Shown: piece after piece, positions 1,297 to 42,050 of the stretch | Numbering within the stretch: position 1 is the stretch's first letter | How the letters are laid out: each line of letters starts with the position of its first letter | Translations under genes and position numbers: made by a program | The notes under the pieces: generated by a model | What the model saw: only the letters and a program-made list of their open reading frames with translations | What the model was told of the DNA's origin: nothing | Databases searched by the model: none | NCBI GenBank assembly: GCA_029865195.1 | Contig: JAOUHH010000001.1 | Span: forward strand, 1 to 42,050 | Length of the DNA: 42,050 nucleotides | Direction of reading: 5' to 3' | DNA from: Desulfobulbaceae bacterium | GTDB taxonomy: Bacteria; Desulfobacterota; Desulfobulbia; Desulfobulbales; UBA5123

Positions 1297-1364
1297 TGGT
1301 GGTGGTGTTACTACCATTGAAGCAGGGTGCCTCCCCACTTGCCGTTACTCAACGCAACAGTTAA

Positions 1365-1862: not shown

Positions 1863-2380
1863 GATGGCTGCTGCTGGTGTTGGCGTTGCTGTCGGGTTGC
1901 GGCCAGGCAACCGATGCGGAACTGATCACCAAGATCGTGGCCGACACCGGCTACTACAGCAAAAAGGCGGATGCCGAGTGGGATGCGGCCATGGCCTCCG
2001 CCTCCGGCGTCAAAGATGTTTCCATGATGCCGGTCGCCGCCACGGCCATCGGCGACCACAACAAGCAACTTGATGCAGCCGTGGTCTGGATCGCCAGGCC
2101 ATATACCCGCACCGCCACCGAGATCGCCAACGCCGACGCCCGCAAGCATGTCCTGCAGGGGATCAACTGTATCCATAATGCCCAAGCCGCCCGGCGTGAA
2201 TTCCTGACCGACCTGCAGACGGCCATGGCCTCCGGCGACCCTGCGGCGGTGGCCGCCGTGGCCGGGAAACACCAGGGATCACTCGGCGCCTGCCAGTCTT
2301 TAATGCTGGTCGGCCTTGGTCATTTCGCCGACGCGAAGAAAATCGCCGGCATGCCGTTGACCATGGACGAGTTCAAATAG
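1859..2380 (+). CDS. Lipoprotein (lipobox LLSGC)
   Basis: 'MRWLLLVLALLSGCGQ' is a signal peptide with a lipobox cysteine. ATGA overlap with the upstream ORF. Confidence 0.65.
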   Translation: MRWLLLVLALLSGCGQATDAELITKIVADTGYYSKKADAEWDAAMASASGVKDVSMMPVAATAIGDHNKQLDAAVVWIARPYTRTATEIANADARKHVLQGINCIHNAQAARREFLTDLQTAMASGDPAAVAAVAGKHQGSLGACQSLMLVGLGHFADAKKIAGMPLTMDEFK

Positions 2381-3466
2381 ATGGCCGTTCGCCCCCACCC
2401 CAAGCAACTCACCGATCCCCGATACTCCCGCACCTGGATCATCGATTATTACCCGCAAGGCCGCAAAGGCAAGCAGTTCAAGCGGCAATTCATCGGCACC
2501 GAAGGCGAGGCCCGCGCCCTCGAGGCGGAACTCCGTCGCGGCCACTCGCTCACGGTTGCGCCGCATCCCAAAATCATCGACCTCCTGCCGGAGTGGCTTG
2601 CCTACTACGCCAACAACCGCGCCGCCTCAACAGTGGCCGACGCCAAAACCTGCCTCAAGCAGCTGGTGCCGTTCTTCGGCATGCTGTTCGTCAATGCCAT
2701 CACGCCCGGGGTGGTTGAACAATACAAGGCCAAGCGCCGCCTGCCTGATCCGGCCACCGGCAGGGCGGCGGTGGGCAAACGCACCGTCAACAAGGAGTTG
2801 TCGTACCTGTCGAGCCTGATCACCTGGGCGACCGACAACAGCCACGCCGCGCCGCTGCCGTTCCGGATCAGGCCGTTCCCCCGGGTGCGATCGCCCAAGC
2901 CCCGCCCCCTTAACCGCGATCAGGTCACGGCGCTGATCAACGCCATCGAACCGGAATACCGCCTGCTGGTGATGATGATGACCGACGGCGGCCTCCGCCG
3001 CAACGAGGCGACCATGGCCACCGCCGAAAACGTGGACCTTGAACTCGGGGTGATATTCGTGAAAGGAAAGGGCGGCCACGAACGCCTGGTGCCGATCCTC
3101 ACCGACCGGCTGCGGGCGGCGCTCGCACACCGCATAAAAGAAACCGGCGGCCGGGGCTACCTCTCGGTAAACCCGGCCACCGGCAAGCCATACTACGGCA
3201 TCCGCAAAGCCCTGCTCCGCGCCGCCACGTCCACCGGCCTCGACAAAAACGTCTACCACCACCTGCTGCGCCACTCATTTGGGACGTCTATGGCCGCCGC
3301 AGGTGTTGACCTCGCCGCGATTCAGGATATAATGGGCCACCGTGACCCGAAAGTCACCAGAATCTACGCCCAACTCGCCGCCGAGGCGCTGAAGGCAGCC
3401 AGCCACAAGGCCGGTTCTTACATGGAGAATTCAACGCCCCCAAAAAACACCGCCACCACGGGATGA
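2381..3466 (+). CDS. int: Tyrosine-type phage integrase
   Basis: 'GGLRRNEA', 'HHLLRHSFGTSMAAAG' and 'IMGHRDPKVTRIY' supply the R...HxxR...H...Y catalytic pattern. It sits next to the tRNA-derived att sequence. Confidence 0.9.
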   Translation: MAVRPHPKQLTDPRYSRTWIIDYYPQGRKGKQFKRQFIGTEGEARALEAELRRGHSLTVAPHPKIIDLLPEWLAYYANNRAASTVADAKTCLKQLVPFFGMLFVNAITPGVVEQYKAKRRLPDPATGRAAVGKRTVNKELSYLSSLITWATDNSHAAPLPFRIRPFPRVRSPKPRPLNRDQVTALINAIEPEYRLLVMMMTDGGLRRNEATMATAENVDLELGVIFVKGKGGHERLVPILTDRLRAALAHRIKETGGRGYLSVNPATGKPYYGIRKALLRAATSTGLDKNVYHHLLRHSFGTSMAAAGVDLAAIQDIMGHRDPKVTRIYAQLAAEALKAASHKAGSYMENSTPPKNTATTG

Positions 3467-3530: not shown

Positions 3531-3595
3531 ATTAAATCAAGTAGTTGCAGGTTGTTTTCGTGGGGTTGGCTCGCTGTCCCATTTCTTACTTTTTC

Positions 3596-4144
3596 TTACG
3601 TTTTAGGCTCAGGCCATCCCGTGGTAATGTCATAGTCCCGGATGCTGGCCACCTTTTCGTCATCATTTAAATTTTTGTCGGCAACAATTGCGTCGATTGC
3701 GTCCCGATGGCCGCCATCAACCCCGGCGATGGCGGTTTCCGCCACCAGCAATTCCGCTGCATTAGCGGCCACCCGTGCGACGAGATCGCTAACCGAGCAA
3801 CCCCTCGCCTCCGCCTCGCCGACAAGATTGGGCGCGTCGGAGTCGATGCCGCTCGCCTGCCACGCCAGTGCCTCCCCGCGCTTAATCGGCCAACTCGCCA
3901 TCTCTGCCGGTGAGGTGGTGCCTATAATCTCGTTACGTTTTTGCGCGGCCAACTTGGAGCATTGTAGTTTTTTGCATTTGGCGGCATACATGGCCGGTGA
4001 ATACGCTGCGAGAGCGGCATCGAGGGCTGTTTGGCCAACGTCATTACAGATTAATTTGCCATCGTCGTAGTAATAATCGCTAGACCCAGCCGCCACCGCT
4101 ACACCGCGAACATCTTCTGTTGCCACAATTAGAATTACAGCCAT
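3596..4144 (-). CDS. Tail fibre assembly/chaperone-like protein
   Basis: Last gene of the tail operon and overlaps the tail fibre stop. The call rests on position. Confidence 0.45.
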   Translation of the reverse strand: MAVILIVATEDVRGVAVAAGSSDYYYDDGKLICNDVGQTALDAALAAYSPAMYAAKCKKLQCSKLAAQKRNEIIGTTSPAEMASWPIKRGEALAWQASGIDSDAPNLVGEAEARGCSVSDLVARVAANAAELLVAETAIAGVDGGHRDAIDAIVADKNLNDDEKVASIRDYDITTGWPEPKT

Positions 4145-5532
4145 TTGAGTACCCTCACTGAAAATGATCGTGATATATAGTTGATGCTCGATGCCGCGTT
4201 GTGAAACACAAACAATTCCAGGTACTGACCAGCCGCCAACCGCACGACCTGCGCGATTGCTTTTGGCAGCGACAAGTTCTGCCCGTCGACCGGAGTCATA
4301 TCTTCAAATTGGTTCGCCCCGTTGAGATACACCATTTGGCGTCGATAGCCGCTATTATCACCTCCCCACGATCCGTTTATCGAGACGATCACATCACAGG
4401 CAGCGGGGGCGATAAACTTGTTGTTAGCGACATCGAACAACCCGTCAGTGTCATTGTATGTGTCGAATGTCACCTTTGTGGGAGTGCTTGCGGGGATTGA
4501 CTGTGTGGTCTTCGCCACGCTGGCAAACGAGAGCAGCGACGCCGGTCGGACGTTGCCGCCAGCGCCCTGTGTCTTGCTCGGCGGTGTCGTCCATGTCCCT
4601 GCGGTAGCCTCGGTGGCCTCGAAAAAACCGTACACCCGGAACGGGACATTACTGCGGGCTGCGGTGGAGTAGATAGTAGATTTGTTGTCGGCACCGCCTA
4701 CACCACCCTCCGCGACAGTAGAAATTAATTTCGATTCATCAAGGTCGATCCCCCCCCGCGCATTTATCCATGCGACCTCAACAGTACCGCCATTGTTGAT
4801 GAGCAACACCATATACCGCTCAGACACCCCATCCCGCCCTCCGCCGGTAGACCCACTCGAAATAACCGTCGAAATTGGTGCGGCAATATATATGCTATCA
4901 ACTGAGCCATCACCTAGCGTTTGATCACGGAAGTCGATAACCTGCGGCGGCACCGTGATTGTTAATGCGCCACCGGCCACAGTGGCGGTAAATGTTTTTA
5001 TCTCCTTCTCCCGTATCGACTCAAACACCAACTCAGTCGTCCCCAGCGTGATCGCTCCGGTGTTGGTGAGCCACCACACCGTCCCGGCGTTGTCGCCTTC
5101 TGATACCGGGATCTGCATGCGCTTGAGGAATTTGTTGCTGGCGTCCATGTCGGTGCGGCGTGTCCAGGCGCCGCCGGCAACCACGATCCACACGCCGTTT
5201 TCTTTGGCGTCGGTCTGCCCTGCCGCCAGCACTTCGTCTCCGGCTACGCAGGCAACGCCGGAGATGGTTTGCTCGCCGCTTAACGTGAGGTTGGTGGTGG
5301 CCACCACTCGCACCGCGTCGCGCACCAGCATGGAGCGCAGCAGCGCCTGCCAGACTTGGGTGTTGTCGTCGGCGCTCGGGGTGAGGCCCCGCTTGGTGAT
5401 CAGGTTGTCGAGTTCGCGTTGCGGATCCTCGATGGCCTGTGCCGGCACCTTGCTTCCTGCAATGCCCTGGCTCGGATTTTTGTCGATGTACGGATCGCCG
5501 GGGTCGCCCCCGATTGGCGGTGTGTATTCCAT
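4135..5532 (-). CDS. Tail fibre protein with a C1q/TNF-like C-terminal domain (start refined to MEYTPPIGG)
   Basis: ATG at 5530-5532, directly after the gp48-like stop. The N-terminus 'DPYIDKNPSQGIAGSKVPAQAIEDPQRELDNLI' is typical of fibre N-termini. The upstream part of ORF 4135..6072 overlaps the gp48-like gene and is not coding. Confidence 0.75.
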   Translation of the reverse strand: MEYTPPIGGDPGDPYIDKNPSQGIAGSKVPAQAIEDPQRELDNLITKRGLTPSADDNTQVWQALLRSMLVRDAVRVVATTNLTLSGEQTISGVACVAGDEVLAAGQTDAKENGVWIVVAGGAWTRRTDMDASNKFLKRMQIPVSEGDNAGTVWWLTNTGAITLGTTELVFESIREKEIKTFTATVAGGALTITVPPQVIDFRDQTLGDGSVDSIYIAAPISTVISSGSTGGGRDGVSERYMVLLINNGGTVEVAWINARGGIDLDESKLISTVAEGGVGGADNKSTIYSTAARSNVPFRVYGFFEATEATAGTWTTPPSKTQGAGGNVRPASLLSFASVAKTTQSIPASTPTKVTFDTYNDTDGLFDVANNKFIAPAACDVIVSINGSWGGDNSGYRRQMVYLNGANQFEDMTPVDGQNLSLPKAIAQVVRLAAGQYLELFVFHNAASSINYISRSFSVRVLKWL

Positions 5533-19404: not shown

Positions 19405-20550
19405 TTACTTGCTGTCGCGGGGCACCAGCGGATTCTTTGAGCCGGTGAAGGCGGCGTCGGTGGAGTCTGCCGACTTGTCGCGGCGGTCGTCGCCCTCAAG
19501 CTGGCCACCGTCCGGGAACTTCTCGTTCATCCGTTTCTGCAGGCCCTTCACTTCCTGCCCCAGGAACTCGACGTCGAACGTGGCGGCGAATCCCTTGGTC
19601 TTGGTCTTGGCCTCTTCAGTCTGCTCGATCTCGCCGAGGGCGGCCTTCATCCGGACATAGTCGGCAATCAGGCCATCCTGAAACTGCTTGCCGAGGGCGG
19701 CCATGGCCTTGGATTCCTCGACCTGGCCGGTGAGTTCGGTGATCTTGGCGTCCTTGGCTGCAATGACGGATTTGACGGACTCGGTGATCTGGTCGTCGGT
19801 GGTGTCGTCGCCGAAGGATTTACCCAACACGGCGCCCAACATCTTCTTGAGTGCGTTCATACCTTTTCCTCTCTGTTGTGGTTGGTTGCCTTCGTCGGCA
19901 TCTGCGCCGGACTTGGCGGATTTTTGCGAGGTTGCCCCCTGCTGCGCTCCGAGCCAGACAAGCGACCCCTCGGTGGCCTCACCGGGGCCGGTGTATTCCC
20001 AGAACATGGTTTCGCCGTGCTTGCCCTTTACCGGGGCCATGTCGGCGGCGATGAAAGAAATCGACCAATGGCGATAAGTGCCGCCGTTGATGTTGGCGAG
20101 GATGTCCTCGACGCTCGGCGTCTTGATCACGTAGTACCAGGCCCACAGCACCTTGACGGCGGCAACGCCGTCAGGCAGGCGCGGGTCTTCGCCGGTGAGC
20201 TCCTTGAATTTCTCCGGGCTGATCTGCTCGGTGGTGGCGTCGAAATAGAGGCCCAGCGGCAGATAGTCGCGGCGGGCGTGGAAATACAGGGTGGATTTGC
20301 CGGGCAGGGTGGTGGCGAAATCGTCGAGCAGCGCCTCGTTGAAGCGTTCCCGGTCGCGGTCAACGCCGTTGTGTGCCAGCAACTGCTTGCGGACAAAGAC
20401 GGCCTCGGCGGTGACGGCCTCAAGGGCGTAGCGGTTGATCTTGGCAAGGATGTCGTCGGTGATCTCGACACCGGCGGCAGTGGCCTTGAGTCCGCTGCCT
20501 GCCGACTTGCTCCGGATCTCGCCGGGGTTGTATGTGCTCTGGCCGGCCAT
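19405..20550 (-). CDS. Prohead protease fused to a scaffold-like C-terminus
   Basis: The N-terminal part has 'DRDRERFNEALLDDFATTLPGKSTLYFH', which is protease-like. The C-terminal part is a charged coiled coil. Confidence 0.6.
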   Translation of the reverse strand: MAGQSTYNPGEIRSKSAGSGLKATAAGVEITDDILAKINRYALEAVTAEAVFVRKQLLAHNGVDRDRERFNEALLDDFATTLPGKSTLYFHARRDYLPLGLYFDATTEQISPEKFKELTGEDPRLPDGVAAVKVLWAWYYVIKTPSVEDILANINGGTYRHWSISFIAADMAPVKGKHGETMFWEYTGPGEATEGSLVWLGAQQGATSQKSAKSGADADEGNQPQQRGKGMNALKKMLGAVLGKSFGDDTTDDQITESVKSVIAAKDAKITELTGQVEESKAMAALGKQFQDGLIADYVRMKAALGEIEQTEEAKTKTKGFAATFDVEFLGQEVKGLQKRMNEKFPDGGQLEGDDRRDKSADSTDAAFTGSKNPLVPRDSK

Positions 20551-21086
20551 CAGTCTTTTTTCCCTTTCTTCATCATGGCCAGCACATGCTCGCCGGTGAT
20601 GACCTTGGACTGCAGGCGGGTGGCCGGCTCGACCGCTTTCTCTTCCCCGGCTGCGGCGGGAGCATCATCAGCTGGGGCAGGGGTGGTGCGGATGAGTTCG
20701 GCGATCTTGCCGTTGGCCTCTTTCAGCGAGGCGGCAAGGGTTTTGTTGTCGGCATGGGCGGACTCAAGGGCGGCGGTCATTTCATCCTTGGCCTGGCGGC
20801 CTGCCTCGTGGGCTGCCTGGTGGGCGGCAAGCATGCCCTCGGCAGCGTCGCGCTCATCGGCGGAGATGTCGAAACCAAGAAGGTTTTCAAGGGCCGCCAC
20901 TTCCGGCTTTCCTTCTTCGGTGTACTCGTCGGCCGCCAACTCGGTGATCGCGCTGCAGATCATCTTCATACGCACAAGGGCGCGGCGGGTGGATGTAGGA
21001 TCGCTTTCGGCGTCCTTCTGGCCCTCAACGCCAGAACCCTTGAAGTCCTTGCCGTCGGTAGTGATCTTGTCGCTCTTTTTCGCCAT
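20550..21086 (-). CDS. Head-module protein, function unclear (possibly scaffold-related)
   Basis: First gene of the head-tail operon. ATGA coupling to the protease gene. Confidence 0.4.
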   Translation of the reverse strand: MAKKSDKITTDGKDFKGSGVEGQKDAESDPTSTRRALVRMKMICSAITELAADEYTEEGKPEVAALENLLGFDISADERDAAEGMLAAHQAAHEAGRQAKDEMTAALESAHADNKTLAASLKEANGKIAELIRTTPAPADDAPAAAGEEKAVEPATRLQSKVITGEHVLAMMKKGKKD

Positions 21087-21154
21087 GGGCCTGTCCTCCG
21101 TGCTGCATAGAAAGAGATGAAAAAGTTCTACTTTTTAAGGGGTTCTCTTTCTCG

Positions 21155-21199
21155 TAGCAGGTAAGCGGGACGCAGGCTGGCAGAGGATGTCACTTTGTG
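21155..21199 (-). promoter_or_regulatory. Conserved late-operon element, copy A, upstream of the head-tail operon
   Basis: 38 of 45 positions match 28067-28111 without gaps (counted by hand), including GCAGGCTGGCAGAGG and TGTCACTTT. Confidence 0.45.
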
Positions 21200-21220
21200 C
21201 GGGTGGGGGGGATGGGCAAC

Positions 21221-21245
21221 AAAAAACCCCGCCGGGATGGGCGGG
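21221..21245 (-). terminator. Rho-independent terminator ending the antirepressor transcription unit
   Basis: On the minus strand: CCCCGCC-loop-GGCGGGG followed by TTTTTT. Confidence 0.6.
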
Positions 21246-21273
21246 GTTAGGTGGGCGAGCGGTGATGGGCTGG

Positions 21274-21498
21274 CTACTTCGTGACGACTGAAAGCCGCCC
21301 CTTGGCTCCTTGTCTTTTGAGATAATCGTGATAGCCGGGCTGGGAGAGCAGACGCCCGGAAACAAGAATCAACTCCAAAAGGTCGCAGGTTTCAAGAAAA
21401 CCTACAATCGACCTTCTCCAATGGCATGCCGCCTTTGAGTGGCGACCGCCTTGATCGGCTGGGGGTCTTACCGGCAAACGGACGATGGTGGCGCTCAT
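21274..21498 (-). CDS. Hypothetical small protein coupled to the antirepressor gene
   Basis: ATGA overlap with the antirepressor stop. Coding status is uncertain. Confidence 0.3.
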   Translation of the reverse strand: MSATIVRLPVRPPADQGGRHSKAACHWRRSIVGFLETCDLLELILVSGRLLSQPGYHDYLKRQGAKGRLSVVTK

Positions 21499-22376
21499 GC
21501 TTCACCCCCTTCCGCCATATCGGCAAACCGGACAAAGCGGTGATAGCGGTAACCGTGGGCGATCTTGCGGCAAGGCTCGCGCCGCCATCCCAAAAACGCC
21601 AGCGATTCTGACTCGCGGGAAAAGAGTGTTCCAAGGTGCTTTGGGTTTCTGAAGATGAGCGGCAACCTGGGCGCCCGCCCGGCGGCGATGAACGCCCCGA
21701 AGAACTGTGCCGTGGTGCCCTGCAGCCATTGGCCGTCAGGCCCGGTGCCGGTTTCAAGGCCGCAGCCGTTCGGTGGTGATGGCAGCAGCAGGGAAAGATA
21801 CTGCGACAGGGTGGCGGCCACGTCCGAGGCGGCAGGGTCCGGCGATTCGATTTCCTCCAGCAGGTCGGCAACCGGCATGCCGGTGAAGAAGTGCAGCGCC
21901 CGAAGGCTGGCCTTGCCCTTGAGGTACTTGTCCGCCTCGCGGCACAGAGCCGAGATGGCGTCCATGGAAAGGCCAGGGGAGGGCAAGGCCGCGCCTCCGG
22001 CATACTGCATCCGTTCGGCCCTGCCGGTGGTCCAATATTGCCACAGGGCGTCGTCGCATTCGTTTTGATAAGAGAGGATTTTTTCCCGGAGTTCTGGGCG
22101 GACTTTCTTGTGATTGATGGTGGCCAGGAACCCGGCAACCTTGCGGATGGGGATGCAGATGGTTTCTTGAATCCCTCCTGCGGAAGGCGTTGTGATAATC
22201 ACAACACCCCATCGATCATTGTTATTCTGTAATTTCACATACTGACTTGCCCAGTTTAGCCCCATGTTCTCAATGATCGGCCTGACCGGGGCGAAGGGTT
22301 CGCCGTTGTGGTCAACGGCAAAGATGGTGTCCCCGTGAAAAGGGACTGGTTCAAGTTGTTTGGCTTGCGCGGACAT
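21495..22376 (-). CDS. Antirepressor-like protein with a P22 Ant N-terminal-type domain (start refined to MSAQAKQ)
   Basis: 'PFHGDTIFAVDHNGEPFAPVRPIIENMGLNWASQYVKL' fits the P22_AR_N pattern. AGGAG lies 8 nt upstream of the ATG at 22374-22376. Confidence 0.7.
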   Translation of the reverse strand: MSAQAKQLEPVPFHGDTIFAVDHNGEPFAPVRPIIENMGLNWASQYVKLQNNNDRWGVVIITTPSAGGIQETICIPIRKVAGFLATINHKKVRPELREKILSYQNECDDALWQYWTTGRAERMQYAGGAALPSPGLSMDAISALCREADKYLKGKASLRALHFFTGMPVADLLEEIESPDPAASDVAATLSQYLSLLLPSPPNGCGLETGTGPDGQWLQGTTAQFFGAFIAAGRAPRLPLIFRNPKHLGTLFSRESESLAFLGWRREPCRKIAHGYRYHRFVRFADMAEGGEA

Positions 22377-22533
22377 GGCGGCTTCTCCTTTGTTGGGGTA
22401 AGAACTCCCCGCCCTCTGCGCTTCCAAACACAAAAAGGGCGGAACCGTACGGGTTGGAAGACCGGAACAAAGGAACCGGCGAGCCGAAGCTCCCCGCACG
22501 GCCCACCCAAAAGGTAAGCTATGCTGCGGACAC

Positions 22534-22559
22534 AAAAAAACCACCTGCACTGGGGGTGG
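22534..22559 (-). terminator. Intrinsic terminator/attenuator inside the antirepressor leader
   Basis: On the minus strand: CCACC-9 nt-GGTGG followed by seven T. It is nested inside an 8-bp outer stem (22526-22533 paired with 22565-22572). Confidence 0.45.
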
Positions 22560-22623
22560 CGGTGGTGTCCGCCTTTGTTTCCGGGCTTCCAAACCCGGTA
22601 GCGGATTTTGCCGCTACACCCCC

Positions 22624-22652
22624 AAGTTATCTCCTGGTTTTTCTATTGTCAA
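22624..22652 (-). promoter_or_regulatory. Sigma70-type promoter pointing toward the antirepressor gene
   Basis: On the minus strand: TTGACA (22652-22647), 17 nt, TAACTT (22629-22624). Confidence 0.5.
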
Positions 22653-22653
22653 T

Positions 22654-22698
22654 AATTAAATGTGCGGTTAGGGTACACACCTTACCGCACATTTAATT
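22654..22698. repeat. Perfect 15-bp inverted repeat AATTAAATGTGCGGT-N15-ACCGCACATTTAATT (candidate operator)
   Basis: Read directly. It abuts the -35 of the promoter above. Its core is shared with sites at 31493-31589 and 42031-42044. Confidence 0.6.
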
Positions 22699-22707
22699 AC
22701 ATAGGCC

Positions 22708-23091
22708 ATGTATAACTATACCAGATGTCCACATTGCGAAAGACTATACAAACTCGGCGATAAAAAACTCCAAATTATTGGGCAAGAGTTTGCTTGTCGC
22801 TGCGGCCAGCGTTTTGTTGCAACGGCGATAGAGGGAATACTACTTAAAGAGGACATCAAACGTGCATGCAAATTTAACCTCCTCTCGGTTGACTACATTA
22901 ACAAAGAATCAAAAAGGGATTCATTGCCGTTTGGGGTTCTTTTTGAAGAGTTTATGGATATGGTAAAGGATCACGCAATAACAAAATTGATTCGTGACCA
23001 CATAAACAAAAACAGATCAAGCTGGCGGAAACTATCAACAAAGGATGTTGAGGAAATTATAGACAACTTCAAAAAGAATAACGACCGATAG
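22708..23091 (+). CDS. Zinc-ribbon protein; AT-rich cargo gene on the opposite strand from its neighbours
   Basis: 'CPHCERLYKLGDKKLQIIGQEFACRCGQRF' is a CxxC...CxC zinc ribbon. It is the only plus-strand gene inside the late region. Confidence 0.6.
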   Translation: MYNYTRCPHCERLYKLGDKKLQIIGQEFACRCGQRFVATAIEGILLKEDIKRACKFNLLSVDYINKESKRDSLPFGVLFEEFMDMVKDHAITKLIRDHINKNRSSWRKLSTKDVEEIIDNFKKNNDR

Positions 23092-23093
23092 TT

Positions 23094-23483
23094 TCACGGC
23101 AACCCAATGCCGTTACTATCGACCGCCCAAGCATCAATCGGTAGATTGTAGTGTTCAATCGTGCTGTTTAAGCGCAGCCAGTATTTACGATCTTTGGGGG
23201 TCTCAAGTATCAAGACGATACCAGCTTTTTTGCCGGTTTGAAGCGAGTAATAAAGTGCTTGCCCTATCGCTTCGGCCCACTTTTTCCCGAAATCAAACTC
23301 AACGGCGTTCGTTGCCGTGAGGCAGTCGCAACGGGTTTGATCAGGCAACACGACTTCCTGAACTCCGCGCTGCTCCTCACACCATTGCTGCTGATACCAC
23401 TTTTCCTTATGGATTGTCTTGCTTGCTGCCGTGAACGGGCACAGCACCATTAAGGCGATGGTTATTACGATTGTTTTTTTCAT
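23094..23483 (-). CDS. Secreted small protein with a possible PD-(D/E)xK-like motif (start refined to MKKTIVITIAL)
   Basis: Signal-peptide-like N-terminus. 'RCDCLTATNAVEFDFGKKWAE'. AT-richer by eye. ATG at 23481-23483. Confidence 0.55.
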   Translation of the reverse strand: MKKTIVITIALMVLCPFTAASKTIHKEKWYQQQWCEEQRGVQEVVLPDQTRCDCLTATNAVEFDFGKKWAEAIGQALYYSLQTGKKAGIVLILETPKDRKYWLRLNSTIEHYNLPIDAWAVDSNGIGLP

Positions 23484-23514
23484 AAAACTACAATATCCCA
23501 GCCGGCCCAAAAAA

Positions 23515-25575
23515 TCACGCCTCACTTTTCGCCGGGCGACTGCTGCACCGGCATCTTGGGTGGGTATCGCGGACCGGCAGGGGGCATTTGTCGATGTCAT
23601 ACTCCCCGGCCAGGCTGCGGCACATATCGCAGGCATCAGGGGCCGGGGCGAAATCCAGCCGCTTGAGGCCGCGCTCTTTCCATTCGGCATGCTTGGCGCT
23701 TTCCGCCGCCATCGCCATTTCAGACCTTGCCAGCCGCTGCCAGTCGGCGTTCTTGTCGGTGAACAGCTTTTCCAGCCTGCGGGCCACCTCCACCGGGTTG
23801 CTGCCCGCGATGACGTGGGCCTCCATCTCCGGCAGGATCTTGTTGCGGAGCGCCTTGGTGGCGTTGTCCTTGACCAGATCAAAGCCATCCTTGACCAGCT
23901 TGTCGAAGATGCCGTGGTTCTTGAGGATCGACAACAGCGTCACCTCGTCTTCAACCATCCGGGCCGCCCGGATCACCCCGGCGCTGAACGCCTGGCCGTA
24001 GAACCAATACACCGGCGATTCCTTTGACGCCGGGTTGTAGGCGGCAAGCCATGTTTTCAACTCGGCGTCGATCAGGCCGCGCTGCTCGGCAGACATCGAA
24101 AAGCCAGGCGGGTCGCCTTCTTCTTTCGCGCCCCTGGCCTGATCGAGCCCGAGGATGGTCTTCACCCGGGCGAGCAGATCGGCCCAATCACCCTGCAGGC
24201 GCTTTTCGTACTCTTCCTCGAGGCTGTCCACCTCCGGCCACTCCTCCGCCCGCCGGCCCTCCTTGCAGCCGCAGGACTTGGCCGCCTTGACCGTCTCGCC
24301 GGGCAGCTTGAACGATTTTTCACCATGCACGGCCAGCGCCTTGCCGATGGAGAGGTCGCGCACATCGAGGGCGATGCCGAGGGTCTCGGCGTTCTGAACG
24401 TGGTACATGTCGGCCTGGGCGTTGAGGAACCGGGCCTGCGCCTGGGCGACAACGTCGTGCAGGTTGACCTGCTCGAATTCGAGCCACCAGTCGCCCTTCT
24501 TCCAGGTGTAGCCGCGCAGCAGGAGCATGGTCTGCACCAGACGGGTAAAAGACGGTAGTTTGGCGGCCTGCCTGGTGACGACATCGGCCAGCACCATCTC
24601 GACCTCGAAGTTGGCGAGGCGCTCGGTGGTGGACCAGTGCAGCCCGAGCATCCACGGCGGCAGGCCTGTTTTACTGACGATCTGCTCCAACACATGTCGA
24701 GACGGGACTTCCATCTCCAGCACCTGGCCGTCGGCGCCGATGATCTTGATATCGATGTCGCTGTCCTTGTCGATGGCGCGGATAAAGTCGGCAGATTTGC
24801 CCGCCCGTTTTGCCCGCACGGCGGCGTCGAACTCGGTGGCCATCTGATCGCGGCGGGTCTTGTGGTCGGCGCCGTCCCGTTTGCTGGTTTTATAGGTGAC
24901 CGAATAGCTCGGATCGCCAAACCGCTCCCAGACGTTGAGCAGCGAGTTGTGCATGGTGGCGAGGACCTTGGCCACGAACTCGCAGGAGCGGAGCATGGGG
25001 GTGCCGTGGGGGTTCTGGTTCTCGTTGCCGATGGAGAAATACATCAGGTTGTCGCGCTTGAGGAGCCGCCAGTCCAGGTCGGCGGAGGCCTTCTGCAGGA
25101 TATCGATGCCGCCGGCCGGGCTTTGACGCCGGAATTTGATGAACTTGGAGTCCGCCACCCGCAGGCCGATAATGTCGCGGCGGGCCTTGTCGGTGATGAA
25201 CTCACCCAGGCCGAATCCCTGCTCGAATGCCTCGTTGCTCACGTTGGCGTGGAAGGCCTGCAGGCCGGTCTGCAGATCGTTGACCGCCACATTGTCCTTC
25301 CAGTCGTTGATTATATCCACCAGTTTGTCGTTGTTGCCCTTGACGACGATGTGGCCGTCCAGCGACACCAGCCGGCCGATGGCGGCATCCACGATCGGGA
25401 TCGCCTCCCGCAGGAACTCGTAGAACGATGCCTCGACGTTGCGGGGGATGAATGACTGAAAGTAAGGGGTGAACGGCCCCTGGCCGTCGTTGGGCCGGAG
25501 TTGCACCCCGTTGGTGAAGGCGGCGTCCTTGGCGAAAAACCCCTTGGCGCGGGTAAGCAGGTTGGGAAAGTTCAT
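23515..25575 (-). CDS. Portal protein fused to a Mu F / SPP1 gp7-like head morphogenesis domain
   Basis: 686 aa, after terL. The C-terminal 'WQRLARSEMAMAAESAKHAEWKERG...CDMCRSLAGEYD...PPVRDTHPRCRC' resembles MuF. Confidence 0.8.
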   Translation of the reverse strand: MNFPNLLTRAKGFFAKDAAFTNGVQLRPNDGQGPFTPYFQSFIPRNVEASFYEFLREAIPIVDAAIGRLVSLDGHIVVKGNNDKLVDIINDWKDNVAVNDLQTGLQAFHANVSNEAFEQGFGLGEFITDKARRDIIGLRVADSKFIKFRRQSPAGGIDILQKASADLDWRLLKRDNLMYFSIGNENQNPHGTPMLRSCEFVAKVLATMHNSLLNVWERFGDPSYSVTYKTSKRDGADHKTRRDQMATEFDAAVRAKRAGKSADFIRAIDKDSDIDIKIIGADGQVLEMEVPSRHVLEQIVSKTGLPPWMLGLHWSTTERLANFEVEMVLADVVTRQAAKLPSFTRLVQTMLLLRGYTWKKGDWWLEFEQVNLHDVVAQAQARFLNAQADMYHVQNAETLGIALDVRDLSIGKALAVHGEKSFKLPGETVKAAKSCGCKEGRRAEEWPEVDSLEEEYEKRLQGDWADLLARVKTILGLDQARGAKEEGDPPGFSMSAEQRGLIDAELKTWLAAYNPASKESPVYWFYGQAFSAGVIRAARMVEDEVTLLSILKNHGIFDKLVKDGFDLVKDNATKALRNKILPEMEAHVIAGSNPVEVARRLEKLFTDKNADWQRLARSEMAMAAESAKHAEWKERGLKRLDFAPAPDACDMCRSLAGEYDIDKCPLPVRDTHPRCRCSSRPAKSEA

Positions 25576-28167: not shown

Positions 28168-28509
28168 TTATACCGTAGGCATCGCCGCAGCTTCAGCGAC
28201 AGCCCTTTCCTTCTCCAGATGCATGTAATCGACAATTTTGTGGGCGTGGGAATCGAGAAACTTCATTATCTTTTCCGCCCGACTGTGCCAGCATTCGCAA
28301 TCAAGCACATACTGAGCGCCCTCGAATGACAAAAAACCAACCGCGTAATCGAGCTCAACAGCATCAGCCATCCCCCTGTAGCCCTCAAGTTCTCCGTCCT
28401 CCCAATCCCATCCTCCGTCGGGGTTGTAAAACACCGCCCCACAGGCACATTGCCCGGTGGAACTCCCCAAGCCATCACCAAAAGCTTGCTCAAATGATTT
28501 TAAGTCCAT
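28168..28509 (-). CDS. Hypothetical protein (AT-richer early/middle cluster)
   Basis: ORF with ATG at 28507-28509. Cys/Trp-rich. No family recognised. Confidence 0.45.
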   Translation of the reverse strand: MDLKSFEQAFGDGLGSSTGQCACGAVFYNPDGGWDWEDGELEGYRGMADAVELDYAVGFLSFEGAQYVLDCECWHSRAEKIMKFLDSHAHKIVDYMHLEKERAVAEAAAMPTV

Positions 28510-28591
28510 GGTATAACCAATCACTCCAGCGGACCAGGGTCAGCGCGGGTTATCCAGCCAGGCCCGGTGGCTGGTCCGCTGAATTCAAGAG

Positions 28592-28810
28592 TTAGCGAGA
28601 GATAATTCCCTCTATCTTCTCCTTCAAAAGGTCTTCGTCGGCAGTGTCGCAGATTAGCGCCAACTCCATTCCGTAGCTTCCCAGGCGCACCCCGTCGATT
28701 ATTTCAACCAATTCAAGAATTGAGTCATACATTTCGTCCGAGATAACCTTTTTGGTACTGTGGGTGTTCACTGTTACGCATTTCCACAATTCAAAATCAT
28801 ATTCATTCAT
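28592..28810 (-). CDS. Hypothetical small acidic protein
   Basis: ATG at 28808-28810, preceded by GAGG. Confidence 0.45.
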   Translation of the reverse strand: MNEYDFELWKCVTVNTHSTKKVISDEMYDSILELVEIIDGVRLGSYGMELALICDTADEDLLKEKIEGIISR

Positions 28811-28918
28811 GTCGTGCCTCGTCGTATTATGGTATTCGCTAACCCGTCGCTTCACTGGAACGCGGGTAGCTAGGGTATGTTTACTGGCAGCACGTTGGCG
28901 CGTCCAGTGAGCTAATCG

Positions 28919-29206
28919 TTATGCCACTATCAATTCTTGCACTTTTTGCAAAGCGGCGATAACTTCCCCTACCTCTTCTTTAGTCATCAGAGTTTCGCCT
29001 TCTTCCACTGTCAGGCTTATTGCGTTGCACTTTCTAAATTCGTCGTGCAATGGGTAAATCTGTATATTCTTAGTCCGGCCAGCAATAACGCACCCTTGGT
29101 CAACTTTGTGCAAGGTGCCATAACAAGGCACTGCACTTGACGCCTGCGGCGTCGGAGTTGGTGCATCCAGTATGGGGTCTACTGTTCTCAATGGTCTTTG
29201 GCTCAT
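28919..29206 (-). CDS. Hypothetical protein
   Basis: ATG at 29204-29206, preceded by AAGGGAAA. Confidence 0.45.
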   Translation of the reverse strand: MSQRPLRTVDPILDAPTPTPQASSAVPCYGTLHKVDQGCVIAGRTKNIQIYPLHDEFRKCNAISLTVEEGETLMTKEEVGEVIAALQKVQELIVA

Positions 29207-29240
29207 AGTTTTCCCTTTCAGTCGCAAGTGAGTTTAGACG

Positions 29241-29531
29241 TTATCTTGCTCTGTGTTTGAATTTTTCCATTTGCTTTTCAATCGTCAAGCCTTCCTTTTT
29301 AAACCGAGTTTCAGCGTAGCAATTTGAGCAACTGAAAATCACTTCCCCCAATAACGCCCTGTGGTCAATCGTGCCTCCGCAATGGGCGCAAGACAACAAA
29401 TCATTCAAAACGACGGGTACACATTCGGGTTGTTGGAGGCTTGCGGGTTCACCAAAAAAATCACATGTCCCGCAACCAATCTTCACACATGGTTTCCGGC
29501 CATCACCAGTAAACAAACATTTCTTGGCCAT
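29241..29531 (-). CDS. Cys-rich (zinc-ribbon-like) small protein
   Basis: 'GCGTCDF', 'CAHCGG' and 'CSNCY' motifs. Confidence 0.5.
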   Translation of the reverse strand: MAKKCLFTGDGRKPCVKIGCGTCDFFGEPASLQQPECVPVVLNDLLSCAHCGGTIDHRALLGEVIFSCSNCYAETRFKKEGLTIEKQMEKFKHRAR

Positions 29532-29579
29532 CTACTACCTCCTGTTATGTGTACCGCGTCTTAATTCAGGCGTTATGCC

Positions 29580-29858
29580 TTAAGCATCCAATGCGGCCCT
29601 TGCTTCTTTTTGCCACCACAAAAGGTCTGTGTCTTGGGTTCGGCTGGCAATGCGGCTAAGCACTTTTTCGTATTCGCGTTTCTTGCATGTATCACATGCG
29701 TAATCCGCAAAGCGTGGGCACCCGCAGGAAGGGCAAAGCAAAACAGCAAGCTCTGCCCCTGATTCAACCTTAAAAATGGCATAACAAGGCGTTTGAGAAT
29801 CGACGCGCGAACATGCGCGTTGCTCGGTTGCCTCTAATGCGTGTCTTTCGTTATCCAT
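29580..29858 (-). CDS. Cys-rich small protein
   Basis: 'CPSCGCP...CDTCKK'. ATG at 29856-29858, preceded by AAGGA. Confidence 0.5.
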   Translation of the reverse strand: MDNERHALEATEQRACSRVDSQTPCYAIFKVESGAELAVLLCPSCGCPRFADYACDTCKKREYEKVLSRIASRTQDTDLLWWQKEARAALDA

Positions 29859-29899
29859 CTTTTTTATCCTTTGCGCAGGCGCGCGTCTCAACTTTGGCG

Positions 29900-30109
29900 T
29901 TAGCCAGCCGCCGGCCGACTAACGTAATCTCTTGTAATATGGTTATTGTTTTTGTCGAAATACATTGATTCGGAAAAGTCTCCGGTATCACAATTGTCAC
30001 AAACTATTTCCACCCTTGTAGCGTCTTCTGGGTCTACCGGGGCCCTTGGTGTCTGTTTTTGGCGCTTGCATTTTGGACACCTCAATGTCAAGTATTCGCT
30101 CATTTTCAC
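29900..30109 (-). CDS. Zinc-ribbon small protein
   Basis: 'CPKCKR...CDNCDTGD'. ATGA coupling with the Mor-like gene. Confidence 0.5.
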   Translation of the reverse strand: MKMSEYLTLRCPKCKRQKQTPRAPVDPEDATRVEIVCDNCDTGDFSESMYFDKNNNHITRDYVSRPAAG

Positions 30110-30375
30110 CCCTCATTCACAATTCGTCTGATCTGTCTGGGGCAAAGGCCGAACCGTTCGGCCAGTTCGCCCACGTTGGCGCCGTTGAATAGGAGGCGGA
30201 TGCGGTGGTCGCGGGCCTCCCGGTTGAGCTCGTCCATGGTCGGCACCGTGATCCGGAAACCACCGAGCTCTTCGACCAACACCAGCATAATCGCGGCGCC
30301 AGCCTCCGCGCCAAACTCCTGCACCAGCCTGGCGGCGTATTGATCAATCAGTTCCCTGTTCTCGGCCCTCGACAC
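30106..30375 (-). CDS. Mor/C-family transcriptional activator-like protein
   Basis: The C-terminal HTH 'RIRLLFNGANVGELAERFGLCPRQIRRIV' fits the Mor family pattern. Confidence 0.65.
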   Translation of the reverse strand: MSRAENRELIDQYAARLVQEFGAEAGAAIMLVLVEELGGFRITVPTMDELNREARDHRIRLLFNGANVGELAERFGLCPRQIRRIVNEG

Positions 30376-31384
30376 TGGTGGCGCCCCCTTGAGTATAAAG
30401 TTGTTCCCATGTGCGCCAATAATCCCTCAAACTGCGGTACTCCTGATTGACCCGGCCGCGCCTCGGTAAATAACGGTCGGTGGTTGCTATGTTCTTGTGT
30501 CCGAGCCTGGCCGCGATTGCGGCGATGGTGAAGCCGCGCACAAAAAGCAGGTCGCTGCCGTGGGTGGCCCGGAACATGTGCGAGTGGATCCGTGGCTTGC
30601 GGACTCCGGCGGCGGTGGCTAGTTCTTTGACCAGGCGGTCGATGTCGTTGCCGGAAAGACGGCGGCCGACCAGTTGGTCGTTTTTGCGATAGCTGACAAA
30701 CAGCGGGTCGTCGATCTTCGCGCCCTGGGTGATCCGCACATTGAGCCAGCGGCGGATGAACACCGCCGGCGCGGCCCAGAGATCCACGGCCCGGCTGTGG
30801 CCCTGCTTGCCGATCTCTTCGTTGACCAGGATGTCGACATAGTGGCCATCGTCGACAAGGTCGGCCAGCCGCAGGCCGCACAACTCGCCAACCCGGAGAC
30901 CGGCAAAAGCCATTACGATCAGGATACAGGTGTCGCGCAGTCCCTTCTCGGTGGTCGGCGGGCTGGCCTCGAAAAACTTGATCACCTCGCCCCGGGTAAA
31001 ATACTGGATCATCTTCGGCTTGATGCGCGGCCTGGGGATCTGCGCTGTGATGTCCTCGGTGGCCAGTTTCTCATACACCAGGAACCGCCAGAACCCGGAC
31101 AACGCCCCGAGCTTGGTGTGGCGCGTGTATGTGCCGTTGCGGCGGTCGTAGTATAGATGCTTGAGCCATGCCTCGACGTCCTCGCGGGTGACCGACTCGA
31201 TGGCGGTGGTGCGGCCGTCCTGGTTGAGCCAGTCGAAGAACAGAGACACCCGGCGCTGATAATCGCCGACGCTCCGCTTGGTGAGGCCGCGCAGCACCAC
31301 AAGATGGTGGCCGTATTGTTCGAGCAGGTCGTCTAGCATCCCCCCCGCGCCCCCCCGGGAATAAGGTCTGAAAAACAGGCCCAA
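30344..31384 (-). CDS. Second tyrosine recombinase (XerC/D-like integrase); start may be at 31339
   Basis: 'AGLRVGELCGL', 'HMFRATHGS' and 'LGHKNIATTDRYL' are catalytic motifs. It also has an N-terminal SAM-like core-binding domain. Confidence 0.85.
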   Translation of the reverse strand: MGLFFRPYSRGGAGGMLDDLLEQYGHHLVVLRGLTKRSVGDYQRRVSLFFDWLNQDGRTTAIESVTREDVEAWLKHLYYDRRNGTYTRHTKLGALSGFWRFLVYEKLATEDITAQIPRPRIKPKMIQYFTRGEVIKFFEASPPTTEKGLRDTCILIVMAFAGLRVGELCGLRLADLVDDGHYVDILVNEEIGKQGHSRAVDLWAAPAVFIRRWLNVRITQGAKIDDPLFVSYRKNDQLVGRRLSGNDIDRLVKELATAAGVRKPRIHSHMFRATHGSDLLFVRGFTIAAIAARLGHKNIATTDRYLPRRGRVNQEYRSLRDYWRTWEQLYTQGGATSVEGREQGTD

Positions 31385-31492: not shown

Positions 31493-31506
31493 CTTACCGC
31501 ACATTT
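31493..31506. promoter_or_regulatory. 14-mer CTTACCGCACATTT, identical to 22681-22694, next to an extended -10-like TGaTAACAT on the minus strand
   Basis: Read directly. It lies about 110-150 bp upstream of the recombinase start. Confidence 0.45.
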
Positions 31507-41237: not shown

Positions 41238-41433
41238 GGTGTTGTGCCTCCAGTTGCTGTTGGTTGTGCCTGGTCAGGGCGTCTGTGTTTCCCGCGTTGA
41301 TTTCGGCGGCCAGCATCTTGACTTTGAACAGGTCCATCGCCGCCTCTTCCTTGCGGAGGACCATCGCCGCAAGGGTCTGGCTAAGTTCGGCGACCTTCCT
41401 TTCAAGTGCTTCGATGCGGGCCATGTCGCTCAC
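41221..41433 (-). CDS. Hypothetical coiled-coil protein
   Basis: 'IEALERKVAELSQTLAAM'. ATGA coupling to the CII-like gene. Confidence 0.4.
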   Translation of the reverse strand: MSDMARIEALERKVAELSQTLAAMVLRKEEAAMDLFKVKMLAAEINAGNTDALTRHNQQQLEAQHHGKRA

Positions 41434-41942
41434 GGTAACTTTCCCCCGTTGTCGGCGGCGCAGCGTACCGAGTGGATGTACGCCATGGTCTGCCGGACAA
41501 GGTCCATCCCCTCTTTTTCGATGGCCGCCGCGTCCTTGTGTGAGGCGTGGCCGTCGGCCAGCCTTTGGCTTGCAGCCTGAGTGAGGTCGCTGAACTCCTT
41601 GATGGTCTTGAGCAGTTCCTTGTTGAGGGCCTCAAGGCACTTGGGCGCGGTCGGCAGCGGCAGGGCGATATGGTCGACGGCGTGGCAGATGTGGTACAGG
41701 GCCGCGAAATTCTGAGACAGCCGCAAAGTGGGGATGAATCTCCCGAGTTGGAACTCAAGTTCTGGAATGTTCGGATTGACCGAGTTGGCCAGTGTTGAGT
41801 AGCTGCACCCAAGTTCCTCGGCCATGGCCTTCATTGGTGTGTTGCCGTGGTGAACGGTTTCGTACAGCGCCTCTTTCAGGGTCGAGTAGCGCACGGTGTT
41901 GAACGGGCTGCCTGCGTATGGGTTTCTGGTTGCATCGCTCAT
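41430..41942 (-). CDS. Phage 186 CII-type (CP76 family) regulatory protein
   Basis: 'MKAMAEELGCSYSTLANSVNPNIPELEFQLGRFIPTLRLSQNFAALYHICHAVDHIALPLP' parallels my recollection of 186 CII 'MAKLAERAGMNVQTLRNKLNPEQPHQF...'. Confidence 0.65.
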   Translation of the reverse strand: MSDATRNPYAGSPFNTVRYSTLKEALYETVHHGNTPMKAMAEELGCSYSTLANSVNPNIPELEFQLGRFIPTLRLSQNFAALYHICHAVDHIALPLPTAPKCLEALNKELLKTIKEFSDLTQAASQRLADGHASHKDAAAIEKEGMDLVRQTMAYIHSVRCAADNGGKLP

Positions 41943-42030
41943 GGTAGAAATCCTGTGTTCGGTTCTACTTTTATATGTTGAACTGCTTGGTTACACTCGA
42001 TAGTGAGGCGTTGGTGTAGTTGCCGTGGCG

Positions 42031-42044
42031 CTCACCGCACATTT
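42031..42044. promoter_or_regulatory. Third copy of the 14-mer (CTCACCGCACATTT, one mismatch), upstream of the CII-like gene
   Basis: Read directly. It lies about 90-100 bp upstream of the start at 41942. Confidence 0.4.
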
Positions 42045-42050
42045 GTCCTT

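Follow-up and report, generated by a model that had tools for sequence, protein, structure and literature searches.

Introduction

Accessory loci of phages, known as morons or lysogenic-conversion cargo, have been reviewed elsewhere (PMC7067206). Those of the HK97/lambda type are AT-rich, lie between conserved genes, are absent from or replaced in related phages and are closed by a terminator. Here we analyze a locus that resembles them in these respects. It is found in a 42,050-nucleotide (nt) stretch of DNA, hereafter the window, which is one whole contig (JAOUHH010000001.1) of a 2.7-Mb metagenome-assembled genome of a Desulfobulbaceae bacterium (GCA_029865195.1) and has the content of a temperate phage. 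The locus centers on two convergent genes, one on the plus strand encoding a zinc-ribbon (Zn-ribbon) protein of 127 amino acids (aa; 22708-23091) and one on the minus strand encoding a 129-aa protein that starts with MKKTIV (23094-23483). An earlier note on this DNA had suggested that the two fit a horizontally acquired cargo cassette that could be expressed from the prophage, its candidate roles being superinfection exclusion, abortive infection or a toxin/immunity pair.

Several described systems offer points of comparison. In Vibrio phage K139, the gene order cI-orf2-glo-int includes Glo, a small signal-peptide protein of 137 aa annotated as 'periplasmic protein; involved in phage exclusion'. 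The immI locus of P22 comprises mnt and arc-ant together with the sar RNA, and that of P1 and P7 has the layout c4-icd-ant. In the isrK-orf45-anrP locus of Gifsy-1, the isrK promoter gives rise to a terminated small RNA (sRNA), and read-through yields the anti-repressor mRNA (PMC4825925).

A convergent gene pair of atypical composition

Judged from the sequence, both open reading frames (ORFs) are real genes, because homologues of the 129-aa protein number more than 700 and the 127-aa protein has full-length relatives. The stop codons lie 2 nt apart, TAG occupying 23089-23091 and the complement of TGA 23094-23096, and no terminator was found between the two convergent genes. The GC content falls to 0.40-0.42 in 400-bp windows at 22600-23200, compared with 0.60-0.65 in the flanks, and the minimum of the entire contig, 0.395, is located at 22651-23100, about 3.7 standard deviations (SD) below the contig mean of 0.601 (SD 0.056). 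At third codon positions, GC content (GC3) is 0.42 in the Zn-ribbon gene, the most AT-rich gene of the contig, and 0.57 in the 129-aa gene, as opposed to 0.70 in the neighboring anti-repressor gene ant and 0.82-0.85 in the portal, terminase and capsid genes; the shift toward AT is extreme in the Zn-ribbon gene and moderate in the 129-aa gene. The windowed GC minimum, the GC3 values and the 2-nt spacing all bear out the description of an AT-richer, tail-to-tail pair given in the earlier note. A crude map based on GC3 also agrees with its statement that the Zn-ribbon gene is the sole plus-strand gene in about 38 kb, since the only other convincing genes on that strand are those of the cI-to-integrase operon (377-3466). 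No Shine-Dalgarno sequence precedes the ATG of the Zn-ribbon gene at 22708, in line with the previous observation that an obvious ribosome-binding site is missing, and this start agrees with the starts of its relatives. On the late strand, 31 nt separate the start of the 129-aa gene from the portal gene ahead of it.

A probable mosaic cargo block between the portal and scaffold-like genes

The pair occupies part of a 2.4-kb gap (21087-23514) that also holds the anti-repressor gene. On the left-hand side, the gap is flanked by a minus-strand gene for a portal protein to which a MuF-like domain is fused at the C-terminus (23515-25575; phrog_30703, E = 4.6e-61; phrog_115, E = 2.3e-18). On the right-hand side lies the first conserved head gene, a scaffold-like gene of 178 aa (20550-21086, minus strand; phrog_2498 match). 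Relatives of the portal gene were detected in viral contigs, 14 of them sharing 55-71% identity, while one further match was weak and partial (30%, limited to the C-terminal part), and homologues of the scaffold-like gene stand directly or closely behind the portal gene in four of these loci (L014, L025, L016 and L022). We compared the junction in the six relatives for which both flanks are sequenced, and found that its content varies. L016 and L022 carry the scaffold-like gene only, with a gap of about 0.6 kb. A HExxH-type protein of 232-257 aa and a protein of 59-60 aa are encoded in L014 (4837-5610) and L026 (9037-9735), an AT-rich gene for a protein with the Fic motif HPFLDGNGRTAR is found on the plus strand of L025 (9261-10394; GC content 0.31-0.42 versus 0.59), and an S-adenosylmethionine (SAM)-methyltransferase-like protein is encoded in L015 (6645-7259). 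Behind the portal gene of L017 we found a serine recombinase gene (3578-4249) and other genes. In L020/L021 the portal gene is followed by a lysis cassette, and behind this cassette lies a homologue of the 129-aa gene whose product is 42% identical.

Neither gene of the pair occupies the syntenic position in any of the six relatives with both flanks, no related phage carries the Zn-ribbon gene or ant at the portal-scaffold site, and ant is absent from all related phage loci compared. These absences contradict the idea that the two genes encode conserved components of the virion or its assembly and merely have odd composition, which we consider scarcely credible; of the refuting conditions named in the earlier note, syntenic conservation as virion components does not apply. 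Their location between portal and head genes would suit such a role, as would a weak match to the 'virion structural protein' family phrog_24656 (E = 0.028) confined to the signal-peptide region, but one of the genes lies on the opposite strand and the homologues are mostly found outside structural modules. Atypical composition, a variable junction and the lack of both genes there in relatives strongly support the status of the pair as acquired cargo, as the earlier note had it. Where that note saw an insert of 0.8 kb, however, the insertion is real but measures about 2.4 kb, and the anti-repressor module belongs to it as well.

Taken as a whole, we hold it to be probable, though by no means certain, that the interval at 21.1-23.5 kb is a mosaic cargo block at a recombination-tolerant hotspot. 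On the simplest reading, DNA was acquired at a permissive site either twice, in separate events, or once, as a mosaic, and the block would consist of three independent units, namely the anti-repressor module, the Zn-ribbon gene and the 129-aa gene. It is closed by a Rho-independent terminator (21225-21248, minus strand; 9-bp stem with 7 GC pairs, followed by a T-run), after which comes the leader of the head operon, about 140 nt long and conserved in relatives. In the window, L025 and L014 alike, the cargo ends in a terminator at this same place ahead of the leader. With regard to the marks of a moron, the terminator is present, and the promoters are weak and read by hand. In contrast to typical morons, the block is composite, joining an RNA-regulated anti-repressor unit to two unrelated small genes, one of which is antisense to the late operon, and its promoters are putative only.

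The anti-repressor module and the palindromic site

The ant gene (21495-22376, minus strand) encodes a 293-aa anti-repressor with a P22_AR_N domain (PF10547, E = 1e-39; phrog_524 'anti-repressor Ant', E = 4.8e-53), and AAGGAG is located 8 nt ahead of its ATG. Three Rfam matches are arranged co-linearly on the minus strand between ant and a palindrome described below: c4-a1b1 target hairpins (22630-22578; RF03163, 52.5 bits versus a gathering score of 46.7), an isrK-like sRNA (22617-22534; RF01394, 59 versus 50 bits) and a C4 antisense RNA (22514-22435; RF01695, 51.5 versus 45 bits). The isrK-like element has a terminator of its own (CCACC...GGUGG and then U7). Complementarity links the C4 loop (22461-22474) to the ribosome-binding region of ant (22386-22399; inverted repeat I7, 86% complementary), and the ant leader folds with z = -5.5 relative to shuffled sequence. 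Reading by hand, we located a putative promoter of the isrK/C4/ant unit at 22652-22624 on the minus strand, with TTGACA (22652-22647) and TAACTT (22629-22624) spaced by 17 nt; it lies below the threshold of the promoter scanner, and the transcription start predicted from it, at about 22617, is the first base of the isrK model.

By these sequence features, the unit can be assigned to the control modules of the P1 immI/Gifsy-1 isrK type. It has the same architecture as the isrK-orf45-anrP locus of Gifsy-1 (PMC4825925), and shares with P1/P7 immI and Gifsy-1 the a1/b1 hairpins, the isrK-like sRNA, the pairing between C4 loop and ribosome-binding site and an upstream control site. By analogy, the C4 loop would pair with the ribosome-binding site of ant and keep Ant untranslated until a switch. 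The module differs from its P1 and Gifsy counterparts in that its Ant is of the P22_AR_N type and that a coupled ORF similar to icd or orf45 was not identified in the window, where no systematic search for it was made; the distance from C4 to the ant ATG is 58 nt, which leaves little room for one. It also sits in the late region and not in an immunity region. The phage that carries this P1/Gifsy-type module stems from an environmental metagenome-assembled genome.

The palindrome (22653-22699) is made of 20-nt arms (22653-22672 and 22680-22699) that are 95% complementary and separated by a 7-nt spacer. Each arm holds a copy of the 14-nt motif AAATGTGCGGTWAG, in inverted orientation (22658 and 22681), and folded as RNA the palindrome yields a hairpin of -27.5 kcal/mol (z = -5.4). 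It abuts the upstream side of the -35 element of the ant unit and spans the region where the promoter or 5' untranslated region of the Zn-ribbon gene would lie. The 'operator palindrome' of the earlier note thus exists and adjoins the start of the Zn-ribbon gene, yet the distance to the ATG is 8 nt, not 10, and its putative role is that of an upstream control site of the isrK/C4 RNA and ant module. The Zn-ribbon gene would be transcribed divergently from the ant promoter across this shared site. One may speculate that its own promoter consists of TTGTCA (22646-22651) and TAGGGT (22669-22674) with a spacing of 17 nt, the -35 being shared with the ant promoter.

Further copies of AAATGTGCGGTWAG are present at 31493, 31558 and 31577, before a gene for a Xer-like recombinase, and at 36939 and 42031, so that the motif is found upstream of the ant and Zn-ribbon genes, the Xer-like recombinase, the primase and a CII-like gene. 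The chance expectation for the exact 14-mer is about 6e-4. No copy occurs in the cI/cro region. The sequences downstream of the seven copies do not align, and we therefore dropped a promoter-element reading of the motif. A cassette flanked by recombinase sites was discarded as well, because no second copy marks the portal-side edge of the AT-rich DNA, none being found between 22700 and 31000.

The two genes look like accidental neighbors

We next consider whether the two genes belong together. In a tblastn cross-search, the two families did not co-occur in any of the 14 loci with a homologue of the 129-aa protein or the 7 loci with a homologue of the Zn-ribbon protein. The families differ about 60-fold in size (more than 700 versus 12 clusters), and the GC3 values of the two genes, 0.42 and 0.57, point to separate origins. 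Since the families never co-occur in the other loci examined, their partners differ and the two genes differ in composition, the pairing looks accidental, that is, the genes are neighbors by accident of insertion and do not form a functional pair. The toxin/immunity or other obligate pair put forward previously is not upheld by these results, nor by the convergent arrangement, which leaves no same-strand bicistron. In such a pair, an exported nuclease-like toxin would be neutralized by the cytoplasmic Zn-ribbon protein before export, or the reverse. The genes are adjacent and both AT-shifted, with stop codons only 2 nt apart, and relatives of the Zn-ribbon gene precede genes with nuclease-like motifs, namely DUF559-like in L028 and L032 (read by eye, with no Pfam match) and PD..E-like in a 237-aa protein of L033. 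Against this stand the absence of any other examined locus with both families, the disparity in family size, convergent genes that are not co-transcribed, the difference in GC3 and the varying partners of each family, and we judge a toxin/immunity pair to be very improbable.

Convergence without a terminator has a consequence of its own, in that expression of the late operon and of the plus-strand gene should interfere mutually. Late transcription through the 129-aa gene would run antisense across the Zn-ribbon gene, and the Zn-ribbon transcript would run antisense into the 129-aa and portal genes.

A protein with predicted export and a predicted nuclease-like fold

The 129-aa protein belongs to a large family. 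A word-indexed search with a threshold of E <= 1e-3 recovered 708 clusters (formed at 90% identity), all unnamed, whose members are about 125 aa in length and for the most part 60-75% identical, and a scan of IMG/VR returned 200 stretches encoding homologues. Pfam, PHROGs, NCBIfam and PADLOC gave no identification, the cluster members have no Pfam domains, and a profile search of the PDB produced matches at E >= 1 only. The N-terminus, MKK-TIVITIALMVLCPFTAA/SK, runs from basic through hydrophobic to small residues (TAA/S, the slash marking the predicted cleavage), and every homologue in the alignment starts with a stretch of 20-25 residues that is variable but hydrophobic and ends in an AxA-like site. 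Twelve positions are invariant down to 30% identity (E27, C35, E43, R51, D53, C54, A60, E62, E71, G74, Q75 and Y79), and Y30, Q31, D64, K68 and W69 are nearly so, with position 64 being E in one member. The invariant C35/C54 pair would fit a periplasmic disulfide. From these patterns we infer Sec-dependent export to the periplasm, which agrees with the secreted protein anticipated in the earlier note. The 'D..T...E.D..K' motif pointed out there corresponds to D53, T56, E62, D64 and K68, all invariant or nearly so in the family. Among three homologues (P0052, P0002 and P0003), one carries a C-terminal extension with KKYHRAGCRHL...CKVC, a small Cys/His-containing motif recognized by eye, and the other two have an internally duplicated core domain.

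An AlphaFold2 model built from 86 sequences (predicted local distance difference test, pLDDT, 84) places an alpha/beta domain of about 105 aa after the signal peptide. Its helices (H) and strands (E) are H26-37, E41-45, E51-55, E59-64, H66-83, E86-91, H96-111 and E116-120, giving the order a1-b1-b2-b3-a2-b4-a3-b5. In the model this topology is restriction-endonuclease-like, with the core alpha-beta-beta-beta-alpha-beta, and places D53 on b2, E62 and D64 on b3, and K68 and Q75..Y79 on a2. The PD-(D/E)xK superfamily has this core, and its RecB-like nucleases carry a QxxxY helix motif; COG4741-type members are described as 'secreted endonuclease related to Holliday junction resolvase'. The 129-aa protein shares the core itself with the superfamily and resembles it in the acidic D53 on b2, E-x-D on b3 followed by K68, and Q75xxxY79, but differs in having Asp in place of the lysine, in its predicted export and disulfide and in the lack of a significant match. 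E62-F-D64 replaces (D/E)xK, K68 comes four residues later and Q75..Y79 is invariant, so the catalytic motif would be permuted or variant at best.

Structural searches gave results of similar kind. Foldseek matches in the PDB were weak, and nuclease folds (SfsA, YaeQ, FAAP24/FANCM and MUS81-EME1, E = 0.5-1.4) were among them. In BFVD, the top match was an unnamed viral protein of 161 aa (E = 6.7e-9), and more than 12 models of endonuclease-like, restriction endonuclease, ERCC4, Vsr or PD-(D/E)XK type followed at E = 0.01-0.7. The predicted topology with its conserved acidic residues favors the PD-(D/E)xK-like hint of the earlier note as far as the fold goes, and a nuclease-like fold with a metal site is probable on the basis of the model. 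Membership in the KilA-N family was rejected, since PF04383 matched none of the 86 members even at E <= 10 and the PDB search returned no APSES/Mbp1 structures.

Homologues of the 129-aa gene in lysogeny modules and defense islands

To see where such genes reside, we turned to their neighborhoods in 76 viral contigs, called with a longest-ORF heuristic and not all independent. The commonest neighbors within two ORFs were S24-type repressors and integrases. A repressor of this type was found in 12 of the 76 loci, ten times upstream on the same strand, and an integrase in 8, six times downstream on the same strand. Individual phages illustrate the pattern: the homologue is convergent with a LexA-like repressor gene in Nitratiruptor phage NrS-4, is the second gene behind cI, in the same orientation, in Dulem virus 31, and adjoins a recombinase gene in Rhizobium phage RR1-A. 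In cellular contigs, homologues follow hsdR of a type I restriction-modification system beside a prophage, follow a DEAD helicase gene next to NOV_C, or lie near Dcm/Vsr genes; one further context is ordinary. Only one degraded copy of the gene is present in 40 relatives of the host. A gene for a patatin-like phospholipase (PF01734, E = 1.6e-23) is located downstream on the same strand in 7 of the 76 viral loci, including L082:4175-5779, L084:4494-6098 and L110/L113:4496-5659, and may form a recurrent two-gene module with the homologue.

The closest described parallel is Glo of K139. Both are small signal-peptide proteins of temperate phages, and homologues of the 129-aa protein in many viral contigs fill the same slot between repressor and integrase. 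The gene in the window, however, is not part of a cI operon, and exclusion by the 129-aa family is an analogy. Homology to Glo was dismissed (hhalign gave a probability of 1.2% and aligned nothing but the signal peptides), and K139 was not among the tblastn matches; Glo would thus be an analogue by position and localization only. On these grounds, we tentatively suggest that the 129-aa protein may be an exported, periplasmic, metal-dependent nuclease-like factor contributing to exclusion of incoming DNA. As a lysogenic-conversion factor, it would act from within the periplasm on nucleic acid as it arrives or on the entry process, with exclusion of superinfecting phage or of DNA uptake as the outcome, in analogy to K139 Glo. 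The prophage-expressed exclusion role raised in the earlier note is plausible, judging by the positions of homologues in other phages.

Several observations weigh against this proposal. The canonical lysine of (D/E)xK is replaced, sequence searches of Pfam, NCBIfam and the PDB found no match, Foldseek against the PDB gave nothing at E < 0.1, and the best annotated matches in BFVD are 'KilA-N' proteins of giant viruses (E = 3e-5 to 2e-3, template modeling (TM) score about 0.6). The mature domain (residues 22-129) is not basic (isoelectric point, pI, about 6). Lysogenic expression is deduced solely from gene positions in other phages, and the 129-aa gene, 31 nt behind the portal gene, has no recognizable promoter or Shine-Dalgarno sequence and may simply be a late gene. 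In that case its product could be a late lysis or release accessory, for example a nuclease clearing DNA around lysing cells or a helper in envelope breakdown. Besides the late-operon strand, the short distance to the portal gene and the lack of a promoter of its own, this role would account for the homologue in L020/L021, which is preceded on the late strand by genes for a holin, an endolysin and a spanin-like protein. We nevertheless regard it as unlikely: in 18 of the 76 viral loci the gene has an S24-type repressor or an integrase no more than two ORFs away, no lysis gene is among the recurring neighbor families, the family also occurs outside prophages in defense islands, and the gene is dispensable in close relatives of the phage.

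The Zn-ribbon protein and its possible roles

In contrast to its neighbor, the Zn-ribbon protein has a small family. The first homology search retrieved the protein itself only and a scan of viral contigs nothing, and an exhaustive HMMER and profile search then delineated 12 clusters at 27-37% identity. Nine members have an N-terminal CPxC...CRC ribbon, and three consist of the C-terminal domain alone. All nine full-length members retain C7, C10, C30 and C32, and the family-invariant residues P74, G76, E81, F82, V114 and I118 are all kept in the window copy. In the AlphaFold2 model (pLDDT 80), a disordered linker joins a four-stranded ribbon to a confidently predicted domain with one strand and four helices, the conserved C-terminal domain of about 75 residues; the protein is cytoplasmic. 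Profile scores stay below the cut-offs (TIGR02098, 16.5 versus 20.9 bits; PF13717, 16.7 versus 30.3 bits), and Foldseek matches are zinc ribbons only (LysW and ZitP, E > 0.4). With four conserved cysteines and a modeled four-stranded ribbon, the identification as a plus-strand zinc-ribbon protein made in the earlier note stands, albeit with these sub-threshold scores. The N-terminus resembles the four-cysteine CPxC...CRC ribbon of MJ0042-type proteins (TIGR02098; Caulobacter ZitP), but the C-terminal domain is unique to the 12 clusters, also occurs without the ribbon and has no match in the PDB profile search or Foldseek. It is acidic in most members (pI 4.6-5.4), which argues against a conserved DNA-binding role, and basic in the window copy (pI 9.1).

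Relatives of the Zn-ribbon gene are found both in phages and outside them. In L029, it follows a gene for a cI-like helix-turn-helix (HTH) protein and faces, in convergent orientation, a gene for a 112-aa protein and one for Ant (phrog_130, E = 1.7e-42), after which comes an integrase gene. In L031, the order is repressor, Zn-ribbon and phrog_16260 protein, facing an anti-repressor gene of ORF6N type with an integrase gene next. In 6 of the 7 relatives' loci, the Zn-ribbon gene is followed by a co-directional gene, L029 being the one without such a partner. Two partners recur: a protein of about 500 aa (L028:5989-7903 and L032:2049-4007; 65% identical) with a DUF559-like motif recognized by eye at its C-terminus and no Pfam match, and the phrog_16260 protein of about 200 aa (L031:5001-6000 and L034:1660-2548; 66% identical). 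The operons lie in islands with TIR, Mrr, BrxR/WYL, JetA, IS91 or UmuC-like genes. Such two-gene units, in insertion-sequence and defense-island or prophage contexts, are candidate small systems of an undescribed kind.

As relatives stand directly after a cI-type repressor and beside an anti-repressor gene, we infer a lysogen-expressed accessory. The Zn-ribbon protein probably acts via protein contacts, because its C-terminal domain is acidic in most members. It would either tune the anti-repressor/immunity decision or arm defense. Taken together, we advance with reserve the possibility that the protein is an accessory made in the lysogen, with protein contacts or possibly DNA binding as its means of action and with either the anti-repressor/immunity circuit or defense as its field. 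Speaking against it, the link to anti-repressors rests on three phages and might reflect shared residence in lysogeny modules, and the searches found no DNA-binding fold or other known fold in the protein beyond the ribbon.

A more specific proposal takes its cue from P22, where mnt occupies the position, divergent from ant, that the Zn-ribbon gene has in the window. The Zn-ribbon protein would then be a maintenance repressor analogous to Mnt, which binds the palindrome and tunes both the ant promoter and its own gene. The palindrome does lie between the Zn-ribbon gene and the divergent ant promoter, the putative -35 hexamers of both promoters appear to overlap, the window copy is basic, the model contains a HTH-like pair of helices (H79-86 and H89-100), and two other prophages co-transcribe a relative with cI beside an anti-repressor gene. 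On the other hand, the protein bears no similarity to Mnt or Arc, which are ribbon-helix-helix proteins, nor a match to any HTH or other DNA-binding family or fold, and most members are acidic in the C-terminal domain. AAATGTGCGGTWAG is also present at four other loci, among them the cluster before the gene for the Xer-like recombinase, a distribution that suggests binding by another protein, and many relatives reside in non-phage defense islands without an anti-repressor. We thus find a Mnt-like function unlikely.

The frequency of co-directional partners suggests yet another possibility, in which the Zn-ribbon gene is the orphaned head of a small defense operon whose effector was lost or replaced, and has no function in this phage. 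Whereas 6 of the 7 relatives' loci have a next gene in the same direction and two such partners recur, the gene in the window runs straight into a convergent one; its AT content is extreme, and its C-terminal domain is divergent in sequence and basic. The frame is intact, though, with every family-invariant residue retained, and L029 likewise has no co-directional partner, for which reasons we think an orphaned gene quite unlikely.

The surrounding phage genome

The phage is temperate and myovirus-like. At the left end of the window, a cro-like gene (80-310, minus strand) faces a gene for a cI-like HTH repressor (377-970, plus strand), which is followed on the plus strand by three small genes and the integrase, ending at 3466. 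The remaining phage genes are on the minus strand and comprise the CII-like gene, the primase, the Xer-like recombinase (30344-31384) with a Mor-like activator, terS, terL, the portal-MuF fusion, head genes and tail genes. The early operon, cro-like and then CII-like, seems to leave the left end of the contig and to resume at the right end (41430-42050). The contig is therefore probably a circularly permuted, near-complete phage genome and not an integrated prophage with host flanks. The phage was not found in 40 genomes related to the host, hence there is no syntenic prophage in them. No tRNA genes were found in the window. Its early region contains a match to the int-alpA RNA (RF02996; 40410-40476, minus strand; 43.8 bits versus a gathering score of 35.8). 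A second AT-shifted block on the minus strand (28168-30109), located between terS and the Mor-like activator gene, encloses six small ORFs with GC3 of 0.45-0.58, several of them with CxxC pairs, and resembles a further cargo or accessory region.

Implications for phage cargo and exclusion

As the two genes are not a system, the claim about the pair itself is an ordinary one. The portal-scaffold hotspot is well defined; it swaps Fic, HExxH-type, methyltransferase and lysis genes, and in the window the anti-repressor module, and provides a useful natural 'landing pad' for the study of moron turnover. Both protein families recur in lysogeny modules and defense islands. A joint reading, which we offer as quite improbable on present grounds, would see in the 129-aa family a periplasmic, nuclease-fold entry barrier of temperate phages and defense islands, a kind of defense not described before, and separately in the Zn-ribbon family new small lysogeny/defense adaptors linked to anti-repressor control. 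If true, Sec-exported, disulfide-stabilized enzymes of the 129-aa family would destroy or block DNA arriving from superinfecting phage, transformation or conjugation. The 129-aa family is abundant, very conserved and predicted to be exported, has no function assigned in Pfam or PHROGs, and by its placement in lysogeny operons and defense islands is a reasonable candidate for a new exclusion or defense activity.

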